From contig CM059432.1 of assembly GCA_030390025.1 (NCBI GenBank), positions 42,286,001 through 42,350,000 of the forward strand: a stretch of DNA of 64,000 bases, given 5' to 3'. The position numbers were made by a program, and so were the translations under genes. The notes below the pieces were generated by a model that was given only the letters and a program-made list of their open reading frames with translations, did no database searches and had not been told where the DNA came from. Positions 3,021 through 26,700 of the stretch are shown piece after piece. Numbering within the stretch: position 1 is the stretch's first letter; every line of letters begins with the position of its first letter. This DNA comes from Squalus acanthias. Its lineage: Eukaryota.

Positions 3021-6000
3021 TTGTAATTCTACTAAACTGAGGCTTATATTAACTTATAGGAGAACACATATCAGAAATATCCACCTGAAACTTCACCATA
3101 TTTAGAATTTAAACATTTCCCCCCCCCCCCTTTTGCTGTTAATTTAAAGTTTGCTGCAGCATGTGATCAGTGATCATTTGAACTTGCTGCATCACTATAT
3201 TGTAATGGAGACATATAACACTTCAACACACCTTTTTCTTTTACTGGTTTTACAGCCAATTGCATGTTTCAGATCACTCTCCCATATTTACACGTGCACA
3301 CAGAGCTGTTTATTTTTATATCAGGTGCTGTGCAGAAATGGAGCCGGTGAATCTGGCAGCTCTTCCTCAGTCCCACAATGAAGTGAGCCTCCACTGCCAA
3401 CACAACAAAGGAAGTCAGGTAGTTTATATTACTAAGTAAAGCCAGCAGCACGAGAATGCACATATGCCACTGGCTGCAATTTAAAAATGTAAACGTACCA
3501 TATATTACAGAGTTGCCTCCAGTGCTGCGAAAATCACTGTCAGAGGCATGCTGTTGTATCAATGATCTGATGTTCTTGCTGTCACATAGTAAAACCCTCC
3601 TGGAGAGGAGGTTTCACTTCCTGTCTCCAATCAAAGGCGCCACTGGTAGGAGCTGTTTAGTTTTGTTGCCAATAGAGATAAAAATTTCAGAATCACTCAT
3701 TTAAAATAATGAGCTCGTCGCACAATTACTCGATAAAAAGAGCTGGCTTACTCTTGAAAGTACAAACGTAAAAAAAAAAAACCCATTGTATTCTGGGGTT
3801 GACTTTCAGGACCAGACTCCTGATACTGGTTTAATGGATGAGACTGATAATTGAGGAGACAATAGCTGAGATTGTCAGTGGTTGTGCCGCTTTAAGTGTG
3901 GCAGAGCAGGAATCCCACCCACCCACTTTCATGCTGCCAAGTTTGCTGGGCTCAGCCCCCAATTTAAATATTCTCGGCAGGTTCCCAACGAGGTTTCCGC
4001 TTATGCTGGGGAGCCTCCACAGGGTCGGGGGGGAGGGGAGGGGAGGGATGGGTGGGGAGCAGTGGTTGTGTTTGAAAATCCCTGATAATGCAGGGGTCTG
4101 CTGCCTGCAGTTGCTAGAGTGGCTCCTTTCTGCAGGCCAGGGAAACATTCAATAACATGGGCTTTTATATCAGGGTTGAAGGTAATCATAATGCAGCCAG
4201 TTAGCAGTACATTCCAATTCATCATTTACGATATTTGAATTCATATCAACTGAAATTTCTTTTACAAATTTTCTCATAAAGCTTGCTGTTTCTCTGTAAT
4301 ATGTTGTGCAACAAATCCTGAGATCACAGTCATTCAAATCATTTAGTCCAATTGCAATTTGGCTCAAATGAGCAGCTTTGACAACTCCTCTGGCAAAAAA
4401 AAAATCTCATAATGGAATAAAACTCCCCGCAAACCACAGACTTCACCTGTATACATCATATAAAGGCTGATAATACAATGGCAGGTGCCTGAAGTACTGA
4501 AATGTAATGGGGGCTTTCATTTAAATTAGGTAGTTGTTCTATAATGTGGCTGGAGCGCATGAGTATTGAAGAGTAAACTACATTACAACAAATGCCTACC
4601 CCTCCTGAAACGTTGTATATTTATCATGTGATTTGTACATAAAACCTGAGGCTCACATTTTTCAATGATCCCCTTTTGTGAACGATCGGTTAAGGATGTT
4701 CTAAACTAGGGTGCAACGTTGGGCCTATGAGCATGAAAGTATTAATGGGGCATCGCCATCCCTGAGAAGTTGTACAGAAAATTTATCTCGCTATTCTGAG
4801 AGTTGTATGTTTCTGTTTGTTTCGGAATACTCTGTTATACAATGTCACTGCTCCTTGACCCTGGCCCTGTGCCCAATACCCCTCCAGTCCTGCTAGGAAC
4901 AGGCAGCCAGCAGTCGTTTACTGGTTCTGGGCGCCTGACACTCTTGGTGCATCATCGCCATGTACCCGGAGTGCCTGAAAATATGCAAATGTGCTGACCT
5001 CATATTATTTGCTGAAATCAGCTCATTTAGACACAGAGGCACATAGTATCTGCACAGCACCAGTGGCACAGGTGCACAGGTTGCATTATCGGCCTCATAG
5101 AACAAGTTTGAAAATATTAAAGTTAAAAATAAGGGAACCCAGAGTACTGCTTCAAATAATTTATGTATGATAGAAATAACAGAGAACCAAGTACTGAATT
5201 TGGAGAAAACGATCTTTTTGAATCAATCTGGTAAGAATGATCTAAACCAGGGTATAACTTTGGACTCACATGTTAAATGGACATTGCTATTCCTGAAAAG
5301 TTGTACACCGTTTCTCACTGTTTTGAGAGTTGGACATTTCAGTTCATCCCAGAAACTGATCTGCCTGAAAACTCTCTAACACAATAACATTGCCGCTTTA
5401 AGCACAGTGCTATATTACCAGTTGGATACAGTCAACAAAATGTTTACCAAGTTACCCAGACACAATTCAAAGGTAGTAGAATAGGATATCATAACTGACA
5501 TATTCTCTAATTGTTCAGCTTCCTTTATTGGTATAATCTTTCTTGATATATAGGGAATCCCCAGAGCATACCATGGCAGTGATGTATGGTGTGTGCTGTT
5601 AGCTCTGGGCTCTGGCCGAGTTAAAATTCTATCAACTGCTAACAATTCCACGCGTCCAGTCAATACCACTAATTTTTATAACCAATTACAAAGCAATTTT
5701 AACTTTACATCATTGTAAAAAGATAATTATTACTTCAGACAACACAAATAAAGCCAATGTGTCCCACACAAAGTGAACTTCCTGCTGAAATCAATAGTTC
5801 TATGCTTCACAGTAATCTTACGTAAAGCAAGAAAAAGAGAAAGTCATGCTAATGTGTGGGTCAGTCACTGTCTGAATCCACAGTGCCCTTCAGAGGCTTG
5901 AATAATCAGTCTTGTGATGAGGCACTTATGACTGAGAGGTTGTAATTTATTGGTAAATAATTTATGCCATGATTAGACTGGGAACAAGGCTAACCTGGGT

Positions 6001-6262: not shown

Positions 6263-7199
6263 GTAGTTTGCTGATGATACAAAGCTGGGTGGGAATGTAA
6301 GTTGTGGGGAGGATGCAAGGAGGCTTCAAGGGGATATAGACAAGCTAAGTGAGTGGGCAAGAACATGGCAAATGGAATATAATGTGGAGAAATGTGAAGT
6401 TATCCACTTTGGTAGGAAAAATAGAAAAGCAGAGTATTTTTTAAATGGTGAGAGATTGAGAAATGTTGGTGTTCAGAGAGACCTGGTTGTCCTTGTACAC
6501 AAATCACTGAAAGTTAACATGCAGGTACAGCAAGCAATTAGGAAAGCAAATGGTATGTTGGCCTTTATTACAAGAGGATTTGAGTATAAGAGTAAAGACG
6601 TCTTACTGCAATTATATAGGGCCCTGGTGAGACCATACCTGGAGTATTGTGTACAGTTTTGGTCTCCTTACCTAAGGAAGGATATACTTGCCATAGAGGG
6701 AGTGCAATGAAGGTTCACCAGACTGATTCCTGGGATGGGGGGGTTGTCCTATGTGGAGAGATTGAGTAGATTGGGCCTATATTCTCTGGAGTTTAGAAGA
6801 ATGAGAAGTGATCTCATTGAAACATACAAAATTCTTACAGGGCTTGACAGGGTAGATGCAGGGAGGTTGTTTCCCCTGGCTGGGGAGTCGAGAACCAGGG
6901 GTCACAGTCTCAGAATAAGGGGTCGGCCATTCAGGACTGAAATGAGGAGAAATTTCTTCATTCAGAGGGTGGTGAACCTTTGGAATTCTTTACCCCAGAG
7001 GGCTGTGGAGGCTCAGTCGTTGAGTATATTCAAGACAGAGATCGATAGATTTTTGGATATTAAGGGAATCAAGGGATATGGGGATAGTGCAGGAACATGG
7101 AGTTGAGGTAGAAGATCTGCCATGATCTTATTGAATGGCGGAGCAGGCTTGAGGGGTCAAGTGGCCTACTCCTGCTCCTATTTCTTATGTTCTTATGTT
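6263..7199 (+). mobile_element. 5'-truncated CR1 LINE (RT C-terminal half and 3' UTR)
   Basis: Translates as FADDTKLGG...MEYNVEKCEVIHFGRKN...LEFRRMR...VVNLWNSLP, with one stop at 6708-6710 and a (TTCTTATG)n tail. Confidence 0.95.
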
Positions 7200-9230: not shown

Positions 9231-10032
9231 AGCTAAAGAGGAGCCTTTTTGAATATAACCTAAATTTCTGGAGAGCAATAGAATCAAAAATGTGTTCCCT
9301 AGATGGAGAGACAACTCACATTATATAAACTGATCAATACAAACATCCTTTGGCTAAAAATATTGAACTGTCTCATCCTGACAGCTAATTGCACGCTCTC
9401 TGTCACTGGCACGAAACCCATGATAAATAGAGTGTGATTCCTCCGTAATGTTTAAGGGTCTGAGTGCACACCACAATAACAAGTGCCTTTGTTATTTATT
9501 CAATACAGTTTTTTTGTTTCCCATTGCACAGTTTACTGCTAACCAGGCACATCTGCTCAGCACAAGTCACTGTGGAAGTGTTTTGTCCTTTCTGACTTAT
9601 GTATCCTCTTGTAGTTTGGTTGCAATGAATATGAATTCATGATTTGAATATTGACAGTGAATATTTAAATTTGGTTCAAATGTTTGCAAAAATTAACCCT
9701 GATGCATATGTTAATCCATGTAGCTGCATAATGCTTTTCTGAAAGGACGTGCCAGTTATCTGAATAAAATGATACAACTGTGCACGCCACATGACCTTGG
9801 TATTGCAATGCCAAGGAACACTGCTACAATTATGAGTCACCTTCTTGTAAGTGTGTTCCTCTTGAAGGCCAGTTCCTTGTTAAAAAAAATGCATGGGGTG
9901 TGCTCCCATCCCATCTGTTTATAAACAGTTTTTGAATTTTGGGCTTTTGTTAAATGTTTGTTGATTTTTTATTCCTGTACGAAAAAGTTCTAAACCCCAA
10001 TGCCCTTACAGCAGACTCATTTGAGGGAACGG

Positions 10033-10106
10033 TAGGGTAGTGGTAATGTCACTGGGCTAGTAATCCAGAGGCCTGGACTAATGATCCGGAGACGTGAGTT
10101 CAAATC
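10033..10106 (+). promoter_or_regulatory. Pol III type-2 internal promoter (A and B boxes) of the LINE's SINE-like head
   Basis: A-box-like TAGGGTAGTGG at 10033-10043 and B-box GTTCAAATC at 10098-10106. Confidence 0.65.
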
Positions 10107-10353
10107 CCACCACGGCAACTGGGCAATTTAAATTCAGTTAATTAAATAAATCTGGAATAAAAAGCTAGTATCAGTAATGGTAACCATGAAACTACCGGAT
10201 TGTTGTAAAAACCCATCTGGTTCACTAATGTCCTTTAGGGAAGGAAATCTGCTGTCCTTACCTGGTCTGGCCTATATGTGACTCCAGACCCACAGCAATG
10301 TGGTTGACTCTTAACTGCCCTCTGAAATGGCCTAGCACGTCACTCAGTTGTAA

Positions 10354-11220
10354 CTAACCGCTACAAAACACAATAATAAGAATGAAACCAGACGGACCAC
10401 CCGGCATCGACCTCGGCACCGGCTACAGACATGGCAACGACACATCCAGCCCAGTCGACCCTGCAATGTCCTCCTCACCAACATCTGGGGATTTGTGCCA
10501 AAATTGGGAGAGCTGTCCCATAGACTAGTCAAGCAACAGCCTGACATAGTCATACTCACAGAATCATACCTTTCAGCCAATGTCCCAGACTCCTCCATCA
10601 CCATCTCTGGGTATGTCCTGTCCCGCTGGCAGGACAGACCCACCAAAGGTGGTGGCACAGTGGTGTACAGTCAGGAGGTAGCAGCCCTGGGTGTCCTCAA
10701 CATTGACTCCAGACCCCATGGGCAAGGAAACCTCCTGCTGATTACCACCTACTGCCCTCCCTCAGCTGATGAATCAGTACTCCTCCATGTTGAACACCAC
10801 TTGGAAGAAGCACTGAGAATAGCAAGGGCACAGAATGTACTCTGTGTGGGGGACTTCAATGTCCATCACCAAGAGTGGCTCGGTAGCACCACTACTGACC
10901 GAGCTGGCCGAGTCCTGAAGGACATAGCTGCCAGTTTGGGCCTGCGACAGGTGGTGAAAGAACCAACACGAGGGGTAAAACCTACTTGACCTCGTCCTCA
11001 CCAATCTACCTGTCGCAGATGCATCAGTCCATGACAGCATTGGCAGCAGTGACCACCGCACAGTCATTGTGGAGACAAAGTCCCGTCTTCACACTGAGGA
11101 CACCCTCCATCGTGTTGTGTGGCACTACTACCGTGCTAAATGGGATAGATTCAGAACAGATCTAGCAGCTCAAAACTGGGCATCCACGAGGCGCTGTGGG
11201 CCATCAGCAGCAGCAGAATT
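10354..11220 (+). pseudogene. Apurinic-like endonuclease (APE) domain of the LINE ORF
   Basis: The frame opens after TAA 10351-10353 with an Arg-rich leader, then VLLTNIWG...PDIVILTESYL...VGDFNVHH. After a frameshift near 10975 it continues LLDLVLTN...SSDHRTV. Confidence 0.85.
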
Positions 11221-11224
11221 GTTT

Positions 11225-12078
11225 TAGAAACATAGAAACATAGAAAATAGGTACAGGAGTAGACCATTCGGTCCTTCGAGCCTGCACCGCCATTCAATGC
11301 GTTCATGGCTGAACATGCTACCTCAGTACCCCATTCCTGCTTTCTCGCCATACCCCTTGATCCCCTTAGTTGTGAGTGTTATATCTAACTCCCTTTTGAA
11401 TATATTTAGCGAACTGGCCTCAACAACCTTCTGTGGAAGAGAATTCCATAGATTCATCACTCTCTGGGTGAAGAAGTTCCTCCTCAGCTCAGTCCTAAAT
11501 GGCTTCCCCTTAATCCTTAGACTGTGACCCCTGGTTCTAGTTTTCCCTACCATTGGGAACATTCTGCCCGCATCTAATTTGTCTAAACCAGTCAGGATTT
11601 TAAATGTCTCTATAAGATCCCCCCTCATTCTTCTGAACTCCAGAGGATACAAGTTCAGTTGACCCAATCTTTCTTGATATGTCAGTCCGGCCATCCCAGG
11701 AATCAATCTAGTGAACCTTCGCTGCACTCCCTCAATAGCAAGAATGTCCTTCCTTAAGTTAGGAGACCAAAACTGCGCACAATACTCCAGGTGTGGCCTC
11801 ACCAAGGCCCTGTACAACTGTAGCATCACCTCCCTACTCCTGTACTCAAATCCCCTTGCTATGAAGGCCATCATTCCGTTTGCTTTCTTGACTGCCTGCT
11901 GCACTTGCATTCCCACCTTCAGTGACTGATGTACCATGACGCCCAGGTCTCGTTGCACGTCCCCTTTCCCTAATCTGCCACCATTCAGGTAATAGTCCGC
12001 CTCTCTATTTTTACCACCAAAGTGGATAACCTCACATTTATCCACATTGTACTTCATCTGCCATACATTTGCCCATTC
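11225..12078 (-). mobile_element. 5'-truncated CR1 LINE inserted into the SINE-headed LINE
   Basis: Open RT C-terminus EWANVWQMKYNVDKCEVIHFGGKN...KGYGEKAGMGY, with a (TTTCTATG)n tail at 11225-11245. Confidence 0.95.
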
Positions 12079-12878
12079 ACCACAATCTGTAACCTCCTGG
12101 CCCGGCATATCCCTCACTCTACCATTACCATCAAGCCAGGGGACCAACCCTAGTTCAATAAGGAGTGTAGAAGAGCATGCCAGGAGCAGCACCAGGTGTA
12201 CCTAAAAATGAGGTGCCAATCTGAGGAAGCTGCAACACAGGACTACATGCATGCTAAAAAGCGGAAGCAGCATGCTATAGATAGGGTTAAGTGATCCACA
12301 ATCAACGGATTAGATCAAAGCTCTGAGGTCCTGCCACATCCAGTCGTGAATGGTGGTGGACAATTAAACAACTAACGGGAGGAGGAGGCTCCATGAATAT
12401 CCCCATCCTCAATGATGGTGGAGCCCTGCACGTGAGTGCAAAAGACAAGACTGAAGCGTTTGCAACCATCTTCAGCCAGAAGTGCCAAGTGGATGATCCA
12501 TATTGACCTCCTCCTGAGATCTCCACCATCATAGAAGCCAGTCTTCAGCCAATTCGATTCAGTCCATGTGATATCGAGAAATGGCTGAGCGCACTGGATA
12601 CAGCAAAGGCTATGGGCCCCGACAACATCCCGGCTATCATACTGAAGACTTGTGCTCCAGAACTAGCCGCGCTTCTAGCCAAGCTGTTCCAGTACAACTA
12701 CAACACTGGCATCTACCCAACAATGTGGAAAACTGCCCAGGTATGTCTTGTCCACAAAAAGCAGGAAAAATCCAATCCGGCCAATTACCGCCCCATCAGT
12801 CTACTCTCAATCATCAGCAAAGTGATGGAAGGTGTCATCAACAGTGCTATCAAGCAGCACTTACTCACCAATAACCTG

Positions 12879-13549
12879 ATGCGGAGATGCCGGTGTTGGA
12901 CTGGGGTGGACAAAAATGAGAAGTCGCACAACACCAGGTTATAGTCCAACAGTTTTATTTGAAATCACGAGCTTTCGGAGCGCTGCTCCTTCGTCAGGTA
13001 AAGTGAAGGAATACAAATCAGCAAAGCATATATAGACAGAGAACAATGTGTAGCGTACAATGTCATACGACTACAGTAAATCTTTCTGACTTCTGACTGC
13101 CTTCCATCACACCTCGGCAGAGATACAATCAGGCCAGTCAGGAAGGCATTACATCAAAGACACAGCAAAATACAGCTAAGACAATGAGGTGGGGTCACAG
13201 GGGGTCCAACGTGTCAAATGCTGCAGTCTGTATGGTTAAGCTTTTTACTTTTTTTTAAAACTGGAAATCACATCTGTGAACAAGACAACGACGACTCGAG
13301 TCTGGATGACTCTACGCCATGTAGCGTGACATGAAACCAAGATCCCGGTTGAGGCCGTCCTCATGGGTGCGGAACTTGGCTATCAGTTTCTGCTCGATGA
13401 TTTTGCGTTGTCGTGTGTCTCGAAGGCCGCCTTGGAGAACGCTTACCCGCAGATCCGAGGCTGAATGTCCTTGACTGCTGAAGTGTTCCCCGACTGGGAG
13501 GTAACAATCCTGCCTGGCGATTGTTGCGCGGTGTCCGTTCATATGTTGT
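12879..13549 (-). mobile_element. 5'-truncated Penelope-like element (end of GIY-YIG domain plus pseudo-LTR)
   Basis: TSD CCAATAACCTG at 12868-12878 and 13550-13560. Encodes MNGHRATIARQ...EQKLIAKFRTHEDGLNRD. Highly similar to about 41822-42520. Confidence 0.92.
12965..13001 (-). ncRNA. Minimal type I hammerhead ribozyme in a Penelope pseudo-LTR
   Basis: Minus strand reads UUAC-CUGACGA-A-GGAGC-AGC-GCUCC-GAAA-GC-UC-GUGA. Confidence 0.85.
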
Positions 13550-15477
13550 CCAATAACCTGCTCACTGATGCCCAGTTTGGGTTCTGCCAAGACCACTCGG
13601 CTCCCGACCACATTGCAGCCTTGGTCCAAACATGGACAAAGGAGCTGAATTCCAGAGGTGAGGTGAGAGTGACTGCCCTTGACATCAAGGCAGCATTTAA
13701 CCGAGTGTGGCATTAAGGAGCCCTAGTAAAACTGAAGTCAATGGGAATCGGGGAAAACTCTCCACTGGCTGGAGTCATACCTAGCACAAATGAAGATGGT
13801 TGTGGTGGTTGAAGGTCAATCATCACAGCCCAAGGACATCGCTGCAGGAGTTCCTTAGGGTAGTGTCCTAGGCCCAACCATCTTCAGCTGCTTCATCAAT
13901 GACCTTCCCTCCAACATAAAGTCAGAAATGGGGATGTTCGCTGATGACTGCACAGTGTTCAGCGCCATTCACAACTCCTCAGATAATGAAGCAGTCCATG
14001 CCCGCATGCAACAAGACCTGGACGACGTTCAGTGGCTGGAGTGGCAGTGAAGTGGCAGGTAACATTCGTGCCACAGAAGTGCCAGGCAATGACTATCTCC
14101 AACAAGCGATTGTCTAACTACCGCCCCTTGACATTCAATGGCATTACCATTGCCGAATCCCCCACCATCAACATCCTGGGGGTCACCATTGACCAGAAAC
14201 TTAACTGGACCAGCCACATAAATACTGTGGCAACAAGAGCAGGTCAGAGGCTAGATATTCTGCGGCGAGTGTCTCACCTCCTGACTCCCCAAAGCATTTC
14301 CACCATCTACAAGGCACAAGTAAGGAGTGTGATGGAATACTCTCGACTTGCCTGGATGAGTGCAGCTCCAACAACACTCAAGAAGCTCAACATCATCCAG
14401 GACAAAGCAGCCCGCTTGATTGGCACCCCATCCACCACCTTAAACATTCACTCCCTCCACCACCGGCGTACGGTGGCTGCAGTGTGTACTATCTGCAAGA
14501 TGCACTGCAGCAACTCGCCAAGGCTTCTTCGGCAGCACTTCCAAACCCGCAACCTCTTCCACCTAGAAGGACAAGGGCAGCAGGCGTATGGGAACGCCAC
14601 CACCTCCAAGTTCCCCTCCAAGTCACACACCATCCTGACTTAGAAGTATATCGCTGATCTTTCATCGTCGCTGGGTCAAAATCCTGGAACTCCCTACCTA
14701 ACAGCACTGTGGGAGTACCTTCACCACATGGACTGCAGCGGTTCAAGAAGGTGTCTCTCCACCACCTTCTCAAGGGCAATTAGGGATGGGCAATAAATGC
14801 TGGCCTTGCCAGCAACGCCCAGATCCCATAAACAAATTTAAAAAAAACTCAAGAACTAAACAGGGAGTAGATGGATATGGCTTTGGTGCCGAAGCAGAGG
14901 GAGATGAAGGTGGTGCGAGTCTGACCCGTAGGTGGACCTAAGCAAGATTATGCTAGGGTTTTGCATAAATACCTACTGATTATTAGCAAAGGAAACTCCA
15001 AAAATGTATCCATCTCAACTATTCAATCCTGGCTGCTGATCTCTAGTCCCAATGGCACAAATACAATTGTATGCAATGGAGTGTTTGCTTATCTCAGTTT
15101 ATCCCTATCAGTTCAACACTTACGTCGCTCATTTTTGAAGCAGTTACATAGATTACATAAAAATTGCAGCTACGACACAGCATCAGTTGTTTTTGCTGGG
15201 ATTGTAATTTGCATCCCCTGCTCTGCAAATGAAAAAAAATCTTTTAATTTCTAGTTTTGCTTGCAACTTATTCAGTTTGAAGTTGTGTTTTCTAAATCTA
15301 AACCAAATTGTATATACCTCTCAGCATTTAAAAATAACTCAATGATGGTAAAGTCCCAATGAAGGTTAAGCTTGTGTCTAAACCATTCTCCTTTGTGGTT
15401 CAGAAGCCCAAGGCACACAACAGAAGGACTTCCTTCATTCCTTGTGCAAGATGTAGGACCAAACGGTGAGGAAATGC

Positions 15478-18884: not shown

Positions 18885-20130
18885 TTCTTTTTCATTTGTT
18901 CCTGGGATGTGAGTGTCGCTGGCAAGGCCAGCATTTATTGCCCATCCCTAATTGTCCTTGAGAAGGTGGTGGTGAGCCGCCTTCTTGAACCGCTCCAGTT
19001 AGTGAGGGAGTTCCAGGATTTTGACACAGTGACGATGAAGGAACAGCGATATATGTCCAAGTCAGGATGGTGCGTGACTTGGAGGGGAACTTGGAGGTGG
19101 TGGTGTTCCCATGCGCCTGATGCTCTTATCCTTCTAGGTGGTAGAGTTTGTGGGTTTGGGAGGTGCTGTCGAAGAAGCCTTGGTGAGTTGCTGCAGTGCA
19201 TCTTGTAGATGGTACACACTGCAGCCACGGTACGCTGGTGGTGGAGGGAGTGAATGTTTAATGTGGTGGATGGGGTGTCAATCAAGTGGGCTGCTTTGTC
19301 CTGGATGGTGTTGAGCCTTTTGAGTGTTGTTGGAGCTGCACTCATCTGGCTAAGTGGAGAGTATTCCATCACACTCCTGACTTGTGCCTTGTAGATGGTG
19401 GAAAGGCTTTGGGGAGTCAGGAGGTGAGACACTCGCCACAGAATACCTAGCCTCTGATCTGCTCTTGTTGCCACAGTGTTTATGTGGCTGGTCCAGTTAA
19501 GTTTCTGGTCAATGGTCACCCCCAGGATGTTGATGTTGGGGGATTTGGCGATGGTAATGTCATTGAATGTCATGGGGCGTTGGTTAGACTCTCTCTTGTT
19601 GGAGATAGTCATTGACTGGCACTTGTGTGGCGTGAATGTTACCTGCCACTTATCAGCCCAAGCCTGAATGTCATCCAGGTCTTGCTGCATGCGGGTATAG
19701 ACTGCTTCATTATCTGAGGAGTTGCGAATGGAACTGAACACTGTGCAATCATCAGCGAACATCCCCACTTCTGACCTTATGATGGAGGGAAGGTCATTGA
19801 TGAAGCAGCTGAAGATGGTTGGGCCTAGGACACTGCTCTAAGGAACTCCTGCAGCGATGTCCTGGGGCTGAGATGATTGGCGTCCAACAAGCACAACCAT
19901 CTTCCTTTGTGCTAGGTATGACTCCAGCCAGTGGAGTCTTTCCCCTGATTCCCATTAACTTCAATTTTACTAGGGCTCCTTGATGCCACACTCGGTCAAA
20001 TGCTGCCTTGATGTCAAGGCCAGTCACTCTCACCTCACCTCTGGAATTCAGCTCTTTTGTCCATATTTGGACCAAGGCTGTAATGAGGTCTGGAGCCGAG
20101 TGGTCCTGGTGCAACCCAAACTGAGCATCG
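18885..20130 (-). mobile_element. 5'-truncated copy of the SINE-headed LINE family (RT and 3' tail)
   Basis: ORF 18935-19768 begins MGMFADDCTVFSSIRNSSDNEAV. It is colinear with about 13565-14835 and has the same tail. Confidence 0.92.
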
Positions 20131-21274
20131 GGTAAAGGGGACCTGAGTGTTCAGGGGCTGGAGGAGCATCGGGGCCAGAGGGGGGAAGGCCAGGAAGGGC
20201 GGGAAGGCGATCGGGGGCCAGAGAGGGAAGGTTGGAGGCCAGAGGAGGAATCAGGGGCCTCGTGGGTGGGATGGGGGAAATCGGAGGCCTCGGCGGGGGG
20301 CTGTCCGATCGTGGGGTTTGGGTGAGGCAAGGGCGCTGGATCCAGTAGGAAGTGCAAAGGCACTTACCTCCTGGATCCAGCGGTCCTCGCCTTACTTTAG
20401 CTGGCAGGTTCCCTGAGGCCTGGGAAACCCGACCAGCCAGAGTTAAATTTGTAATGGTGGATCACCATGAGGCACGCCAACCTCATTTTAATATTTAAAT
20501 GGACGCCTGCCTCCTGGCAGCGGGTTGGCTGCCCGCCCCCGGTCCCACGTCCATTAAAACCGGATGCGGGAGAGTTGAGGCCTGTTGGGGTCGGGATTCA
20601 GTTTTTTAACACTTTAACCTCCCACCTGAACCCAACTCACCCATTTTTGGGGGTTAAAATTCTCACCTTAAATTCTCCAAAATCATACTGTAGACTATTA
20701 CCTGAAAAAGTGGTATCCTCAATTCTGTCTTTTTTTGGTGTTCCCCATGCATCAGACATGGGAAGAAAAGCAGCACCAGTCAGTGACCACAGTCCTAGAT
20801 TTGACTGACACAACCAGGGACCTTGCAATGTCAGTGAATCCCTACAGTCGGTCAACACGCTTATTCCTTCCATAAGGAAATCACTTAAAAGGAATGCTAG
20901 GATAGTGGCACACATCTGAAACAAAGCAGAAGCACCAAGGGCGGCCCTGTGCTAATTCAAGCTGCCAGCATTTACACACTAGGTAATCGAGAAAACAAAT
21001 ACCCTGCATTTGATTTAAATATTATGCTGAATATTTATTTGTCATTGGTTACAATACAGTAGGAGCACAACATAATGTGGCAATATTTGTAGAACTAAGC
21101 TTGAAAATGTAGGACAAGGTGATTGGATGCTGTTATTCTGCTCCTTTAAGAAACAGTGTAGCTGTGGCATCCTGGGAAGGCTCAGGCATCAGCACACAAA
21201 TCTTCTTTGTTACATTGCTGGCACAGTTGCTAATTCCTCATGGGTATTTCACCCTCTTACTCTGTCATGCCTTT

Positions 21275-21721
21275 GAAAGAAAGAAAGGCTTGCATTTATG
21301 TGGTGCCTTTCACGAGCACCGGACGTCCCAAAGTGCTTTACAGCCAATGATGTACTTTTTGAAGTGTAGTCACTGTTGTAATGTAAGAAACGCAGCAGCC
21401 AATTTGCGCACAGCAAGCTCCCACAAACAGCAATGTGATAATGACCAGATAAACTGTTTTAGATGTTGATTGAGGGATAAATATTGGCCAGGACACCAGG
21501 GATAACTCCCCTGCTCTTCTTCAAAATAGTGCCATAGGATCTTTCACGTCCACCTGAGAGAGCAGACGGGGCCTCGGTTTAGCGTCTAATCCAAAAGACA
21601 GCACCTCCAACAGTGCAGCACTCCCTCAGTACTGCACTTAAGTGTTAGCCTAGATTTCTGTGCTCAAGTCTCTGGAGTGGGACTTGAACTCACAACCTTC
21701 TGACTCAGAGGCGAGAGTGCC
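21275..21721 (-). mobile_element. Deu-domain SINE (SacSINE1-like)
   Basis: Minus strand shows a tRNA-like head (GGTTGTGAGTTCAAGTCCC), a central CTCTCAGGTGGACGTGAAAGATCC domain and a GCACTTTGGGACGTCC...AAATGCAAGCCTTTCTTTC tail. Homologous to 39005-39421. Confidence 0.8.
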
Positions 21722-22453: not shown

Positions 22454-23757
22454 CTTCTTCTTCTTAGGCAGTCCCTTGGAACCGAGGATGACTTGCTTCC
22501 ACATTAAAAAAAATGAGTCTCAGGTGACTGATGAGTCCATTGCGGGACCTACAGTCTCTGTCACAGGTGGGGCAGATGATGGTTGAAGGGGCGGGTGGCT
22601 GGGGTGCTTGGGTTGACGTGCGCTCCTTGCGCTGCCTGCGCTTGGCTTCCGCTTGCTCCCGGCGAAGAGACTCGAGGTGTTCGGCGCCTTCCCGGATGCT
22701 TCTCCTCTACTTTGTGCTGTCTTGGGCCAGGGATTCCCAGGTGTCGGTGGGGATGTTACACTTTTTCAAGGAGGCTTTGAGGGTGTCCTTGAAGCGTTTC
22801 CTCTGCCCACCTGGGGCTCTCTTGCCGTGCCGGAGCTCCGAGTAGAGCACTTGTTTTGGGAGTCTCGTATCGGGCATGTGGACGATGTGACCCGTCCATC
22901 GGAGCTGATCGAGCGTGGTCAAAGCTTCGATGCTGGGGATGTTGGCCTGAGCAAGAACACTGACGTTGGTACGCCTATCCTGCCAATGGATTTGCAGGAT
23001 CTTGTGGAGGCAGGGTGGGTGGTACCTTTCAAGTGCTTTGAGGTGCCTGCTGTACATGGTCCATGTCTCTGAGGCATACAGCAGGACGGGTATCACTGCT
23101 GCTCTGTAGACCATGAGCTTAGTGCCGGGTTTGAGGTCCTAGTCTTCAAACACTCTCTTCCTCAGGCAACCGAAGGCTGCACTGGCACACTGAAGGCGGT
23201 GTTGGACTTCGTCGTCGACGTTTGCCCTTGTTGACAGTAGGCTCCCGAGGTGTGGAAAGTGGTCCACGTTGTCCAAGGCCTTGTCGTGGATTTTGATAAT
23301 CAGGGGGCAGTACTGTGTGGCGGGGACAGGTTGGTAGAGGACCTTTGTCTTACGGATGTTTCGTGTAAGGCCCATGCTCTCGTATGCTTCGATGAAGGTG
23401 TTGACGATGGTTTGGAGTTCGATCTCCGAGTGAGCGCAGACGCAAGCATCGTCTGCATACTGTAGTTTGACGACAGAGGATGGGACGACCTTGGATCTGG
23501 ACTGGAGGCGACGGAGGTTGAACAGTTTCCCGTTTGTTCTGTAAATTAGCTCCACTCCAGTGGGGAGCTTACTGAGGGTGAGATGGAGCATTGCAGCAAG
23601 GAAGATCAAGAAGAGCGTTGGTGCGATGACACAGCCTTGCTTGACCCCGGTTCGTACGTGAATTGGGTCTGTGGTGGAACCGTTGGTCAGGATCACGGCT
23701 TGTACGTCGTCGTGAAGCAGGCGGAGGATGGTGACAAACTTTTGAGGGCAGCCGAAG
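22454..23757 (-). mobile_element. 5'-truncated RTE-clade LINE
   Basis: Motifs GVKQGCVIAPTLF, LQYADD, LLYASETWT, QLRWTGHIVHM and GGQRKRFKD, with a (GAA)n tail at 22454-22465. Confidence 0.92.
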
Positions 23758-26700
23758 AGCTTGCAAGCAGTCTGATTTAAACTTAGCTAGTCTGCAGTTA
23801 CATGCCGAGAGAAATAAATGTGGTTGAGGTAGTGATCACTACTAAGAGCATTTATTTGTTCTGCTAGCTGCTGTGCCTTCTTTGATGAGAAGCTCGCTCA
23901 TCCTCTGATTCTTAGTATAATAATGCAATGCAAAATTAATAGGTTTCTATAATTCCTGAAAGGTTGATCATGTGCAGGACATTTCTTTTCTACTCTTCAT
24001 GCTTCTGCCCACAGTTATTACACTGCTGTACTTGTACTGTGGCACTGCTGTACCTTCTTTGATGGTCTTAGCTGGGTGGGTTATGGTCTCACCTTTTACG
24101 TAGAAAATGAGCTGTAGCTAGGTTCTGTATAGCTCAAATGTGTTTCTTTGAGAACTCCACACATTTGCAGTAATTTTGATAAATCTTAATCTGTCTCTAA
24201 AGAGTCCCTCAAGTCAGCTCTAATTCCACATATAATCCTATCTCTGATCAAAGATTCATGCAATTCTTCAAAAATTCATACAGTTGATAAATTTTTCAGT
24301 TCAATGACATATTTCTCCGGTTGTTTTCCAGTCTCTTGGTTGTAAGTAAAACATTTTGGAGCACTTAATGGTCTGAATTTTCTTATGGTTGCATTGCCTC
24401 TGCCAGGATTCATTCTTCTGGAACTCTAGTAAACTGCACAGGACTGTACGGCTCTCTCCCCGACTGCCTATTAGGTGCAAAAACATTTTAACTTTCATTT
24501 TCTCATCTTTGCCAGTTGTTGCAAGTTCTCTATATAATTGTAATTGTCCTTTCTGGTGCTTTCAGACTTTTGGAGAATCTGCTTTGATTTATATCTGTGC
24601 TGGTGGTTTTAACTGGTCCATATCTGCAGGCTTTAAGCACTTACACTGTACTTATCGGAAACTATTCAGCCGATCATCTATACATCTCTCCTGATTTTAA
24701 ATTGTGAGAGACGTATAACAGGCAGCTGAATCGATAGCGCCCATTTTACACTATCGCCCAAAGTCAAAATTACCTCCAGAGTGTTTAGAATATCCCGAGG
24801 ACATGAAAAGTGCAAGGCAAGTGCAGTTCTGTTTTCTTTCTTTCCTGAATTCTAGTGAACTCCTTGGTGGTTGAGAAATTAGTTCAAAGGAATTTTTTCC
24901 AATATTTTTTGCAACAGGGTACAACAGGGATCACTGTTTCAAGTTTTGACGTTTTTTGCTGTATTGCTTTAGTTAGGCCCCTGTTTCAGTGACTTGTGAT
25001 TGCTTCTTCCAGCCTTTTCTTCTCATCTCTGAATGATTGCACGTCTGACACTACATGATTGAGAAGTTAGATTTCATGTTTAGAACAAAAACAATTTATT
25101 TATAAATATATGTGGAGCAAAATATTAATTAGAGAAGGAACACAATTTAAAATATACAATAGTTTTGAAAATTGAATACTTATTACATTTCTTTTTATTG
25201 CTGAACAGAGTTTATCTATTATTTATTAAAAATGATAGGTGGGTCACAATATTCCATTTTAAAATGGATTGAAAACTCCTAAGTCAAACTAGTTATTTGG
25301 AAAATCTCATAACAAAAGTGTCGATATATACCTGCAATATTTGTTATGCCCATAGGTGGTGGGGTGATAGGGGTTTTCAATGTTAAACTTTGCTAACGAT
25401 AACCTTATTTGCATATGCAAAGGGTCTAACGCCTGTTTCAGGCATGGGCCCTGGATGCCTATTTTTTTCCCTATACCACTATGATGAGCAGCGCACTTTT
25501 GGTTCGTAATGAGTGCACGCTTCCTGCCTGCCATATTGGATGCTTAGGTGTCTGTTTAGCGCCTGAAAATCTGGTGTGGTGCCATCAAATTTTTAGGTTT
25601 CTTTATTTTTTGGAAAATCAGGCCACTGAGATACTGAGGCAGCTTCCCGCCACTCCCCGCTGAGGTACATTCCACCACTTCAGCTGAGGTACTTTTCCAA
25701 CCGTCTCCCGCCAACTGAGAGAGCTTCCCCCATCTACTATCTCACTTTCCTCCTCAGCCCCCTTTCCATCGTCCTCTTCTCTTTTCCCTCCTGCCCCTCT
25801 TCCCTGTTGCCCTTACACTTCCTTCTTCTCCCCCACCCCCGCCATTCCCCTCCGACCCTTCATTCTCCCTTCCTCACCCCTTCCTCCATCTTGGCTCAAT
25901 TATTCTCCCACCCTCTAACCCTGTCTGACCTGCAGACAGGGCTTGGTCTTGACTATCTGTATGCAAAACCATGGGGGAAGGGATGATGAGTACAACATTA
26001 AAAATAGAAATAGTTTTATATAAACTATTCATAATTCTATCTATGGTTTCAGACATATCTTCACTTATTTAGTTACAGAAAATAAAACATTAAGAGGTAA
26101 TAATCTTTTTATAAGTTCAGGAAACTAAGCATTGCAGATCAGATTGTAAAAATAGAAAAGCATTTGGAATTTTAAGCATGCTGGGTGTGAAACCACAGAA
26201 ATGTTTTAAGGATGAAGTATTTTAGGAGTGCTGTATCATTCACTATAGTAGGATTCCTCTCTAGGAGTGATATTGTTCTATGATGAATGTCAAAAAAGGT
26301 AGCTCTGAAGGACGAGTACCACGGCATCGATTAGAAGGGTGTTGTGGCATTGTTTCAAGTCAGAACTGTCTCAAGATGCCTCCATTAGACAAGCCAAGAG
26401 CCAATTAAAAAATAAAACCTTCATATCCCAAGTGAACAACTTTGACAAACAATGTGGTGTGTCATACAGAGCCAAAGGCACAGAGATGTCAAATGAAGAA
26501 TCAAGGGGATTGAACTGAGATCCGCGAACGTGTAATTAGGGCTGAGCAACCGCTTTGGATGTGACACCTTACTTTAACCCTTTCCAACCTATTATTTTCT
26601 AGTTCTTTTGCTTTTAGTTGTCAGGATGACAATATTTTACCCTCTCCCAACCCACTGATTTTTGGATACATTGTACCTTGTTCCTGGGACACACATTGAC

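Follow-up and report, generated by a model that had tools for sequence, protein, structure and literature searches.

A tRNA-headed, T-cluster-poor Zenon-1 LINE of sharks and rays that may be transcribed by RNA polymerase III

The 3.7-Gb genome of Squalus acanthias, the spiny dogfish, includes a decayed but full-length long interspersed nuclear element (LINE) in a 64,000-nucleotide stretch of contig CM059432.1 (GCA_030390025.1, positions 42,286,001 to 42,350,000, forward strand; hereafter the window). Judging by its sequence, this element is a copy of elasmobranch Zenon-1, a family whose sequence has already been published. It lies at 10025 to 14847 on the plus strand, has ~3.29 kb of native sequence, and differs from the column majority of its family by 4.05%. 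The family unit begins with a tRNA-derived head that carries internal promoter boxes for RNA polymerase III (Pol III); T-clusters are depleted from its sense strand only. On the basis of these features, we propose, with a probability of roughly 0.65, that active Zenon-1 masters are autonomous LINEs with one open reading frame (ORF) that are transcribed by Pol III.

The Zenon assignment derives from several comparisons. The supplement to Stuart et al. 2026 (PMC13343379) contains five occurrences of a motif taken from the window, and the two rows displayed are shark Zenon-1. A tree of reverse transcriptase (RT) sequences places the family apart from canonical CR1 elements, in a clade of 34 rows (approximate likelihood-ratio support, SH-aLRT, 99) that includes the lepidopteran proteins P0033 and P0080 and leaves four shark CR1 elements outside. 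This tree came from a quick search with 70 of 78 rows, the 8 dropped rows including L2 and RTE fragments. P0033 and P0080 are not themselves labelled Zenon, and the name rests on the match to the published Zenon-1 rows. As in other members of the Zenon/CR1 group, apurinic/apyrimidinic (APE) endonuclease and RT domains occur in one ORF according to Pfam matches (PF14529, PF03372, and PF00078) and frame analysis. There is also a poly-A tail and no ORF1, as only ~330 nucleotides (nt) precede the ORF and a 48-codon overlapping upstream ORF is the only other frame noted. The protein clade is present also in the protist Lithocolla (P0013).

The tRNA-derived head forms the 5′ end of the Zenon family unit, and both shark and ray elements have it attached to the ORF. 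In the window it spans 10025 to 10110 on the plus strand, has an enlarged variable arm, and is recognised as tRNA-derived by a weak Rfam match and as the true 5′ end by the points at which copies start. It carries an A box at 10033 to 10043 (family majority TAGCGTAGTGG, with one substitution in the window copy) and the B box GAGTTCAAATCC at 10096 to 10107, and both boxes are retained in most family copies. A body of ~240 nt in the family (10111 to 10353, plus strand) completes the 5′ untranslated region (UTR) and is common to the LINE and to the free short interspersed nuclear elements (SINEs) described below. When 29 copies were picked by their endonuclease sequence alone, 12 started at positions 1-8 of the unit, two of which may be a segmental duplicate, and the other 17 starts were scattered over 121-650 with no second or internal peak. 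A head-ORF junction query gave 6290 candidates, and all 40 scored matches span the junction at no less than 93%. Four older headed copies (9-10% substitution) likewise join head to ORF. The junction is also bridged in contigs of sequencing runs X9 and X11, which represent two further organisms, and no bridging piece is listed among the assembled contigs of runs X13 or X14.

The head and body are shared, along with an out-of-frame ATG, by all five published elasmobranch Zenon-1 rows (four sharks and one ray; PMC13343379), none of which has TTTT by eye in its first 400 letters. The hagfish and coelacanth Zenon rows of the same supplement, also inspected by eye, are without the head, and TTTT occurs in them several times over the initial 400 nt. 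A search from copy L003 for a divergent sister family lacking the head returned just ordinary family matches. No match to a strict A/B-box pattern was found among 80 metagenome relatives, many of which lie on contigs with little upstream DNA, so headlessness is not implied. ARAGORN detects no tRNA gene either in the window or among 60 of the 80 metagenome loci, an Rfam scan of the whole window gives 4 chance-level matches and nothing more, and the fold of the 5′ region does not exceed that of shuffled sequences (z 0.20). In a 664-kb sample (the window, the adjacent 200 kb, and two other 200-kb blocks), the family makes up 4.8% of bases, with 25-fold cover at its 3′ end and 2-8-fold cover at its 5′ end, a pattern that 5′ truncation would be expected to give. 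A consistent target-site duplication was not found among 17 near-full-length copies, one of which has a clear 16-nt match.

The single endonuclease-RT ORF (10354 to 14783, plus strand; ~969 codons in family columns) evolved under protein-level selection. Non-CpG variants common to at least five copies are distributed 18/15/40 over codon positions 1/2/3 (P 1.7e-4), and singleton variants 416/405/408. Because the shared variants are skewed to the third position and the singletons are even, it was the masters that evolved under this selection. In the window copy the frame is disrupted by two insertions plus frameshifts, and no fully open copy is present among 19 examined, the longest open frame being 736 codons. 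No in-frame ATG occurs upstream of the endonuclease. The 48-codon upstream ORF (10382 to 10528, plus strand) lies in another frame, and its ATG is conserved in each of the five published elasmobranch consensuses; inspection by eye revealed no canonical slippery heptamer. Phe (2.0%) and Leu (8.8%) are at their lowest in the Zenon protein among 36 clade proteins, and 9 of 13 conserved Phe residues are retained in it, which is ordinary. The N-terminal half of the protein had no matches in a PDB search.

An initial annotation of the window, made from the sequence alone, had reported that the native sense strand contains no run of four or more T residues (T4) and had proposed selection against Pol III termination. 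The observation itself is correct. The native segments as then delimited (10023-11220, 12079-12878, and 13550-14835) hold no T4 runs and 15 A4 runs, in agreement with the earlier count of more than ten. The TTTT noted at a CR1 junction (11222-11225) is present, and all nine T4 runs between 10023 and 14835 fall within two nested insertions. A second Zenon copy, which is 5′-truncated on the minus strand (18894 to 20129; formerly 18900-20130), also lacks sense-strand T4, and the T6 that had been cited from a CR1 copy (6437-6442) is there. The pattern extends to the family. In a pile-up of 41 copies (39 fetched from the genome and 2 from the window, each 2.0-7.2% from the column majority), there are no four adjacent majority-T columns, versus 14 A4, 11 C4, and 9 G4 sites. 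The copies contain 14 T4 in 115,317 nt (0.12/kb, one being the CR1 junction) versus 519 A4, and a larger set has 20 T4 in 178,975 nt. T4 is present in all 80 metagenome relatives.

As a sole test, however, the T4 count is not decisive. The expected number of T4 in the family majority is 3.9 if bases are independent and 1.5 under a first-order Markov model (probability of no T4, 0.23), and two codon nulls for the natural 736-codon ORF give 1.9 and 2.6 (P 0.11 and 0.054). Thus, in these comparisons, of which the initial annotation had called for the codon shuffle, zero T4 is within or near what base and codon composition predict (P 0.05-0.23) and is not significant alone. The suggested comparison with LINEs transcribed by Pol II gives a mixed answer, as a 624-codon ORF from a Pol II-type RTE similar in composition likewise lacks T4 (0 versus 2.6 expected, P 0.03) whereas the full RTE unit has T-runs, namely T5 and T4 in the first 150 nt of its 5′ UTR and T5 at the end of its ORF. 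With T at 17%, the RTE family shows a single majority T-run over 2.9 kb. This family, seen in the window at 22707-23786 on the minus strand, is ~4.1 kb long and T-poor, with an 870-nt 5′ UTR and an ORF that is near-free of T4 but not of T-dense windows.

The proposal of selection is carried instead by a wider depletion of T-clusters. In work with human Pol III, an isolated T3 is no terminator, while TVT3, T2VT3, T3VT2, and T2AT2 terminate and TTCTT gives 15% termination in human extract (Orioli 2011, PMC3141230). Moreover, SINEs naturally use TCTTT and TATTT as terminators (PMC8466645). Following Orioli 2011, we counted T-dense windows that include such non-canonical terminators. The family majority is 19.5% T and has an observed/expected (o/e) TT ratio of 0.71 and 7 T3 versus 19.7 expected, compared with TT o/e 0.91-1.20 and T3 o/e 0.94-1.36 in nine control rows (two CR1 families were left out of these column-majority controls for low depth, and Harbinger, absent here, enters the ORF-level tests). 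All seven TTT sites are isolated, which is the form inactive as a terminator. Windows with four T in five number 1 versus 12.3 expected (P 5e-5), or versus 6.8 if the TT depletion is kept in the null (P 0.012). As in a type 2 Pol III unit, no internal terminator is evident, and the sole such window in the majority, the TTCTT at 14525 to 14529 (plus strand), is weak. On the sense strand of natural copies there are 3.6 T-dense windows per 3.3 kb versus 13.7 expected, and on the antisense strand 43.5 versus 43.2. T-dense windows have o/e values of 1.00-1.53 in the eight families that served as controls (RTE, four CR1, two Penelope, and L2).

The same tendency emerges at codon junctions, where TT provides a measure that is independent of protein sequence. 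The Zenon ORF has 6 such TT versus 21.8 expected, and the o/e values of 15 control ORFs are 0.66-1.73. Codons ending in T make up 6 of 105 where the next base is T, compared with 84 of 429 where it is C or A (Fisher P 4e-4). On both measures, every one of the 80 metagenome relatives lies above the six natural family ORFs, which are not independent of one another. Private mutations to T adjoin another T as often as neutrality predicts (163 of 419, with an opportunity of 38%), and therefore mutation bias does not explain the depletion. Shared mutations to T do so less often (5 of 26, P 0.059). In these comparisons, the depletion of T-dense sequence is well beyond chance and specific to both family and strand, being absent from the eight control families and the 80 relatives. 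The earlier proposal of selection is therefore partly supported, through this wider pattern and not through the TTTT count from which it was drawn.

Pol III transcription would account for this pattern in the following way. TFIIIC would bind the internal A and B boxes of the head, and Pol III would initiate at the first G of Zenon and read the entire 3.3 kb because nothing stops it. Transcription would then end at the first T-run in flanking DNA, and T4 does occur within ~1 kb past the 3′ motif in 26 of 28 copies checked. A master that gained T4 or an interrupted T-run would leave no copies because its truncated RNA would lack the 3′ end needed for target-primed reverse transcription. The uncapped RNA would need an unconventional route to translation, in which ribosomes probably scan to the conserved out-of-frame ATG and then frameshift or re-initiate, and internal deletions would yield ready-made SINEs. 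Titles of work by Gunnery and Mathews from 1995 and by Gunnery et al. from 1997 reportedly indicate that Pol III RNA can be translated. The same is indicated by a Pol III reporter in whose design a TTTT was removed (PMC8223928). The complete scenario is slightly more probable than its negation: an autonomous coding Zenon, transcribed by Pol III from its internal tRNA promoter, would predate the shark-ray split, even weak terminators would have been eliminated through changes in its codons and possibly in its amino-acid use, the uncapped RNA of 3.3 kb would be translated via the out-of-frame AUG, and SINEs would arise from the element by internal deletion.

Several points weigh against Pol III transcription of the coding element. 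The AATAAA and the A tail are equally compatible with processing of a Pol II transcript, and T-tracts can also bring about termination by yeast Pol II in purified form (PMC7615648). Zero T4 is not significant alone, one RTE ORF shares it (P 0.03), and the terminator strengths that we used were measured with human rather than shark Pol III. In the wider tests, mild TT deficits are found in three control ORFs (P 0.010-0.022) and a T3 deficit in one Penelope ORF (P 0.013), the shared-variant trend is not significant (P 0.059), and over the final third of the element TT falls little short of expectation (33 versus 37.2). The family is effectively one lineage, so its copies are not independent samples. 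Furthermore, the head of copy L038 scores 22.1 bits (E 0.027) with the Rfam tRNA model, which is below the gathering score of 29, and with neither a cap nor an in-frame ATG there would be no conventional way to start translation.

Some of these points would be accommodated if Pol II made the coding RNA, either from flanking host promoters or through Pol II activity at the head, with the head serving as a 5′ UTR or a helper. Such RNA would be capped and translatable, the AATAAA and A tail would be expected, and there is precedent in a lepidopteran Zenon without a Pol III promoter (PMC6740152). T-clusters might then be shunned for other reasons, such as Pol II pausing or termination (Pol II is able to terminate at T-tracts; PMC7615648), splice acceptor tracts, or U-rich decay signals. 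However, T-dense windows are no rarer than expected in eight other retroelement families of the same genome, T4 and T5 runs occur in the full RTE unit, and the headless Zenon elements of hagfish and coelacanth have TTTT. It would also be necessary to explain why the A and B boxes are preserved at the exact 5′ end. We consider this explanation unlikely, but worth serious attention.

It is rather improbable that the two polymerases share the work, such that Pol III RNA is an untranslated template for reverse transcription, with terminators selected away, while protein is supplied in trans from capped Pol II read-through transcripts. This arrangement would account for both the purge and the absence of a normal start codon, and the numerous free SINEs (20 of 25 loci) show that trans-mobilisation is efficient. 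However, protein-level purifying selection on the variants that propagate requires that one set of masters give rise both to the RNA that is copied and to the RNA that encodes the protein, a condition more simply satisfied by action in cis. A further alternative is that no selection is involved and that T-runs are missing as a consequence of a composition poor in T (19.5%) and rich in C and A, or of mutational bias. This is very improbable and already largely refuted, for although it accounts for zero T4 (P up to 0.23) and RTE at 17% T also has few T4, none of the 8-9 control families or 80 relatives shares the composition-normalised deficits of TT, TTT, and four T in five, these deficits are strand-specific, and mutations after insertion create TT at the neutral rate.

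Under Pol III transcription of the coding element, SINEs would be an expected by-product. Abundant free SINEs with many different junctions are indeed present (L233-L257, and L069:1887-2285), for which no name was found in the literature searched. They consist of the two ends of Zenon. Among 25 loci found with an old short copy (L233-L257), 20 combine the head with the tail, 4 are LINEs that carry the head, and 1 is ambiguous, and the joint of head and tail is seen in contigs of 4 of 4 sequencing runs. The 5′ parts end at 278-357, mostly at 340-343, and the 3′ parts begin at many points over 3143-3230, all within the end of the ORF. This variety fits repeated internal deletion of the headed LINE, and a possible alternative is that the head was captured from an older SINE. 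Like a SINE2 element, the Zenon unit has a tRNA-like head with A and B boxes at its 5′ end. However, at 3.3 kb and with an ORF under purifying selection, it is not short, non-coding, and non-autonomous, and only its deleted derivatives qualify as SINEs.

The working division in the field assigns coding LINEs to Pol II and non-coding SINEs to Pol III (Kojima 2018, PMC5786205). If our proposal is true, a high-copy coding LINE on Pol III would break this division, and Zenon RNA would be a natural multi-kilobase Pol III mRNA, which raises the issue of how an uncapped RNA without an in-frame AUG gets translated. A SINE could then be born in one step, by deletion within a LINE that already bears the promoter. 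The proposal also predicts that a single synonymous T-run should halt Zenon.

The remaining features of the window copy include a short 3′ UTR and tail (14792 to 14847, plus strand), with the AATAAA at 14792-14797 and an A8 at 14840-14847. The native segments, as now delimited (10025-11221, 12079-12878, and 13550-14847, plus strand), are separated by two nested minus-strand insertions. A 5′-truncated CR1-type insertion (11222 to 12078) is the source of the junction TTTT. The other (12879 to 13549) is called Penelope-like from its translation and the initial annotation, has no Pfam match, and is bordered by an 11-bp target duplication (12868-12878 / 13550-13560). A short repeat at ~21150-21470 has a translation that suggests another shark SINE with an L2-type tail, presumably similar to SacSINE1. 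Elsewhere in the sample, a CR1 copy in block C12 (~50,055,545-50,058,508, plus strand) has a 988-codon open frame over endonuclease and RT, which suggests a recent insertion. Fragments of another RT family in block C8 (~87,300-89,400 and 168,400-168,950, as offsets from the window start) are what we take to be Vingi/Ingi-like elements. An annotated shark aldo-keto reductase model (P0015) includes ~215 residues of the Zenon ORF at 87% identity, and this segment is probably a gene-prediction artefact or an exonisation. P0007, a clade relative, has an N-terminal motif that we presume to be 2A-like.

No description of a Pol III-transcribed coding LINE, or of this head, was found in a literature search that did not extend to Repbase Reports, Dfam, or most subscription journals. 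What is added here is the Zenon identity, the retention of the head in both sharks and rays, the tests of non-canonical terminators and codon junctions, and the RTE caveat. The closest known relatives are the elasmobranch Zenon-1 consensuses (CarCar, HypSab, RhiTyp, ScyCan, and SquAca; PMC13343379), which represent the same family as the window element. Like the window family, they are 3244-3314 nt long, lack ORF1, and end in poly-A, and SquAca_Zenon-1, from the spiny dogfish, is near-identical to the window family's copies over the first 400 nt, the portion compared for each published consensus. The main text of that report has no occurrences of tRNA, pol III, or promoter, and it makes no remark on the head, on the purge of terminators, or on the SINEs derived from the element.

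Lepidopteran Zenon elements present motifs in their 5′ UTR rows that we take to resemble self-cleaving ribozyme cores, perhaps an alternative means of forming the 5′ end. They resemble the shark element in being CR1-group LINEs of ~3.3 kb with a poly-A tail and short, internally deleted derivatives termed Persaeus (PMC6740152). However, Persaeus, which bears the Zenon 5′ UTR, is described there as having no tRNA homology or Pol III promoter, and one lepidopteran Zenon 5′ UTR in the supplement contains T5. SacSINE1 and other Deu-SINEs of sharks also have a tRNA-derived head in cartilaginous fish (PMC5499810), but SacSINE1 is described as combining a Deu body with a tail of L2 type, whereas the window element has a Zenon tail; an initial SacSINE1/Deu label for it has been withdrawn. 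Kojima 2015 (PMC4494074) used internal oligo-T to exclude Pol III transcription, which is the mirror of our argument, and Kojima 2018 (PMC5786205) regards autonomous LINEs as transcribed by Pol II. Bov-tA and SINE2-1_ACar, from these two papers, resemble the free SINEs in joining a tRNA head to LINE-derived 5′ and 3′ parts. They are non-coding, however, and acquired the head after the deletion, whereas in shark Zenon the head is on the coding element itself.

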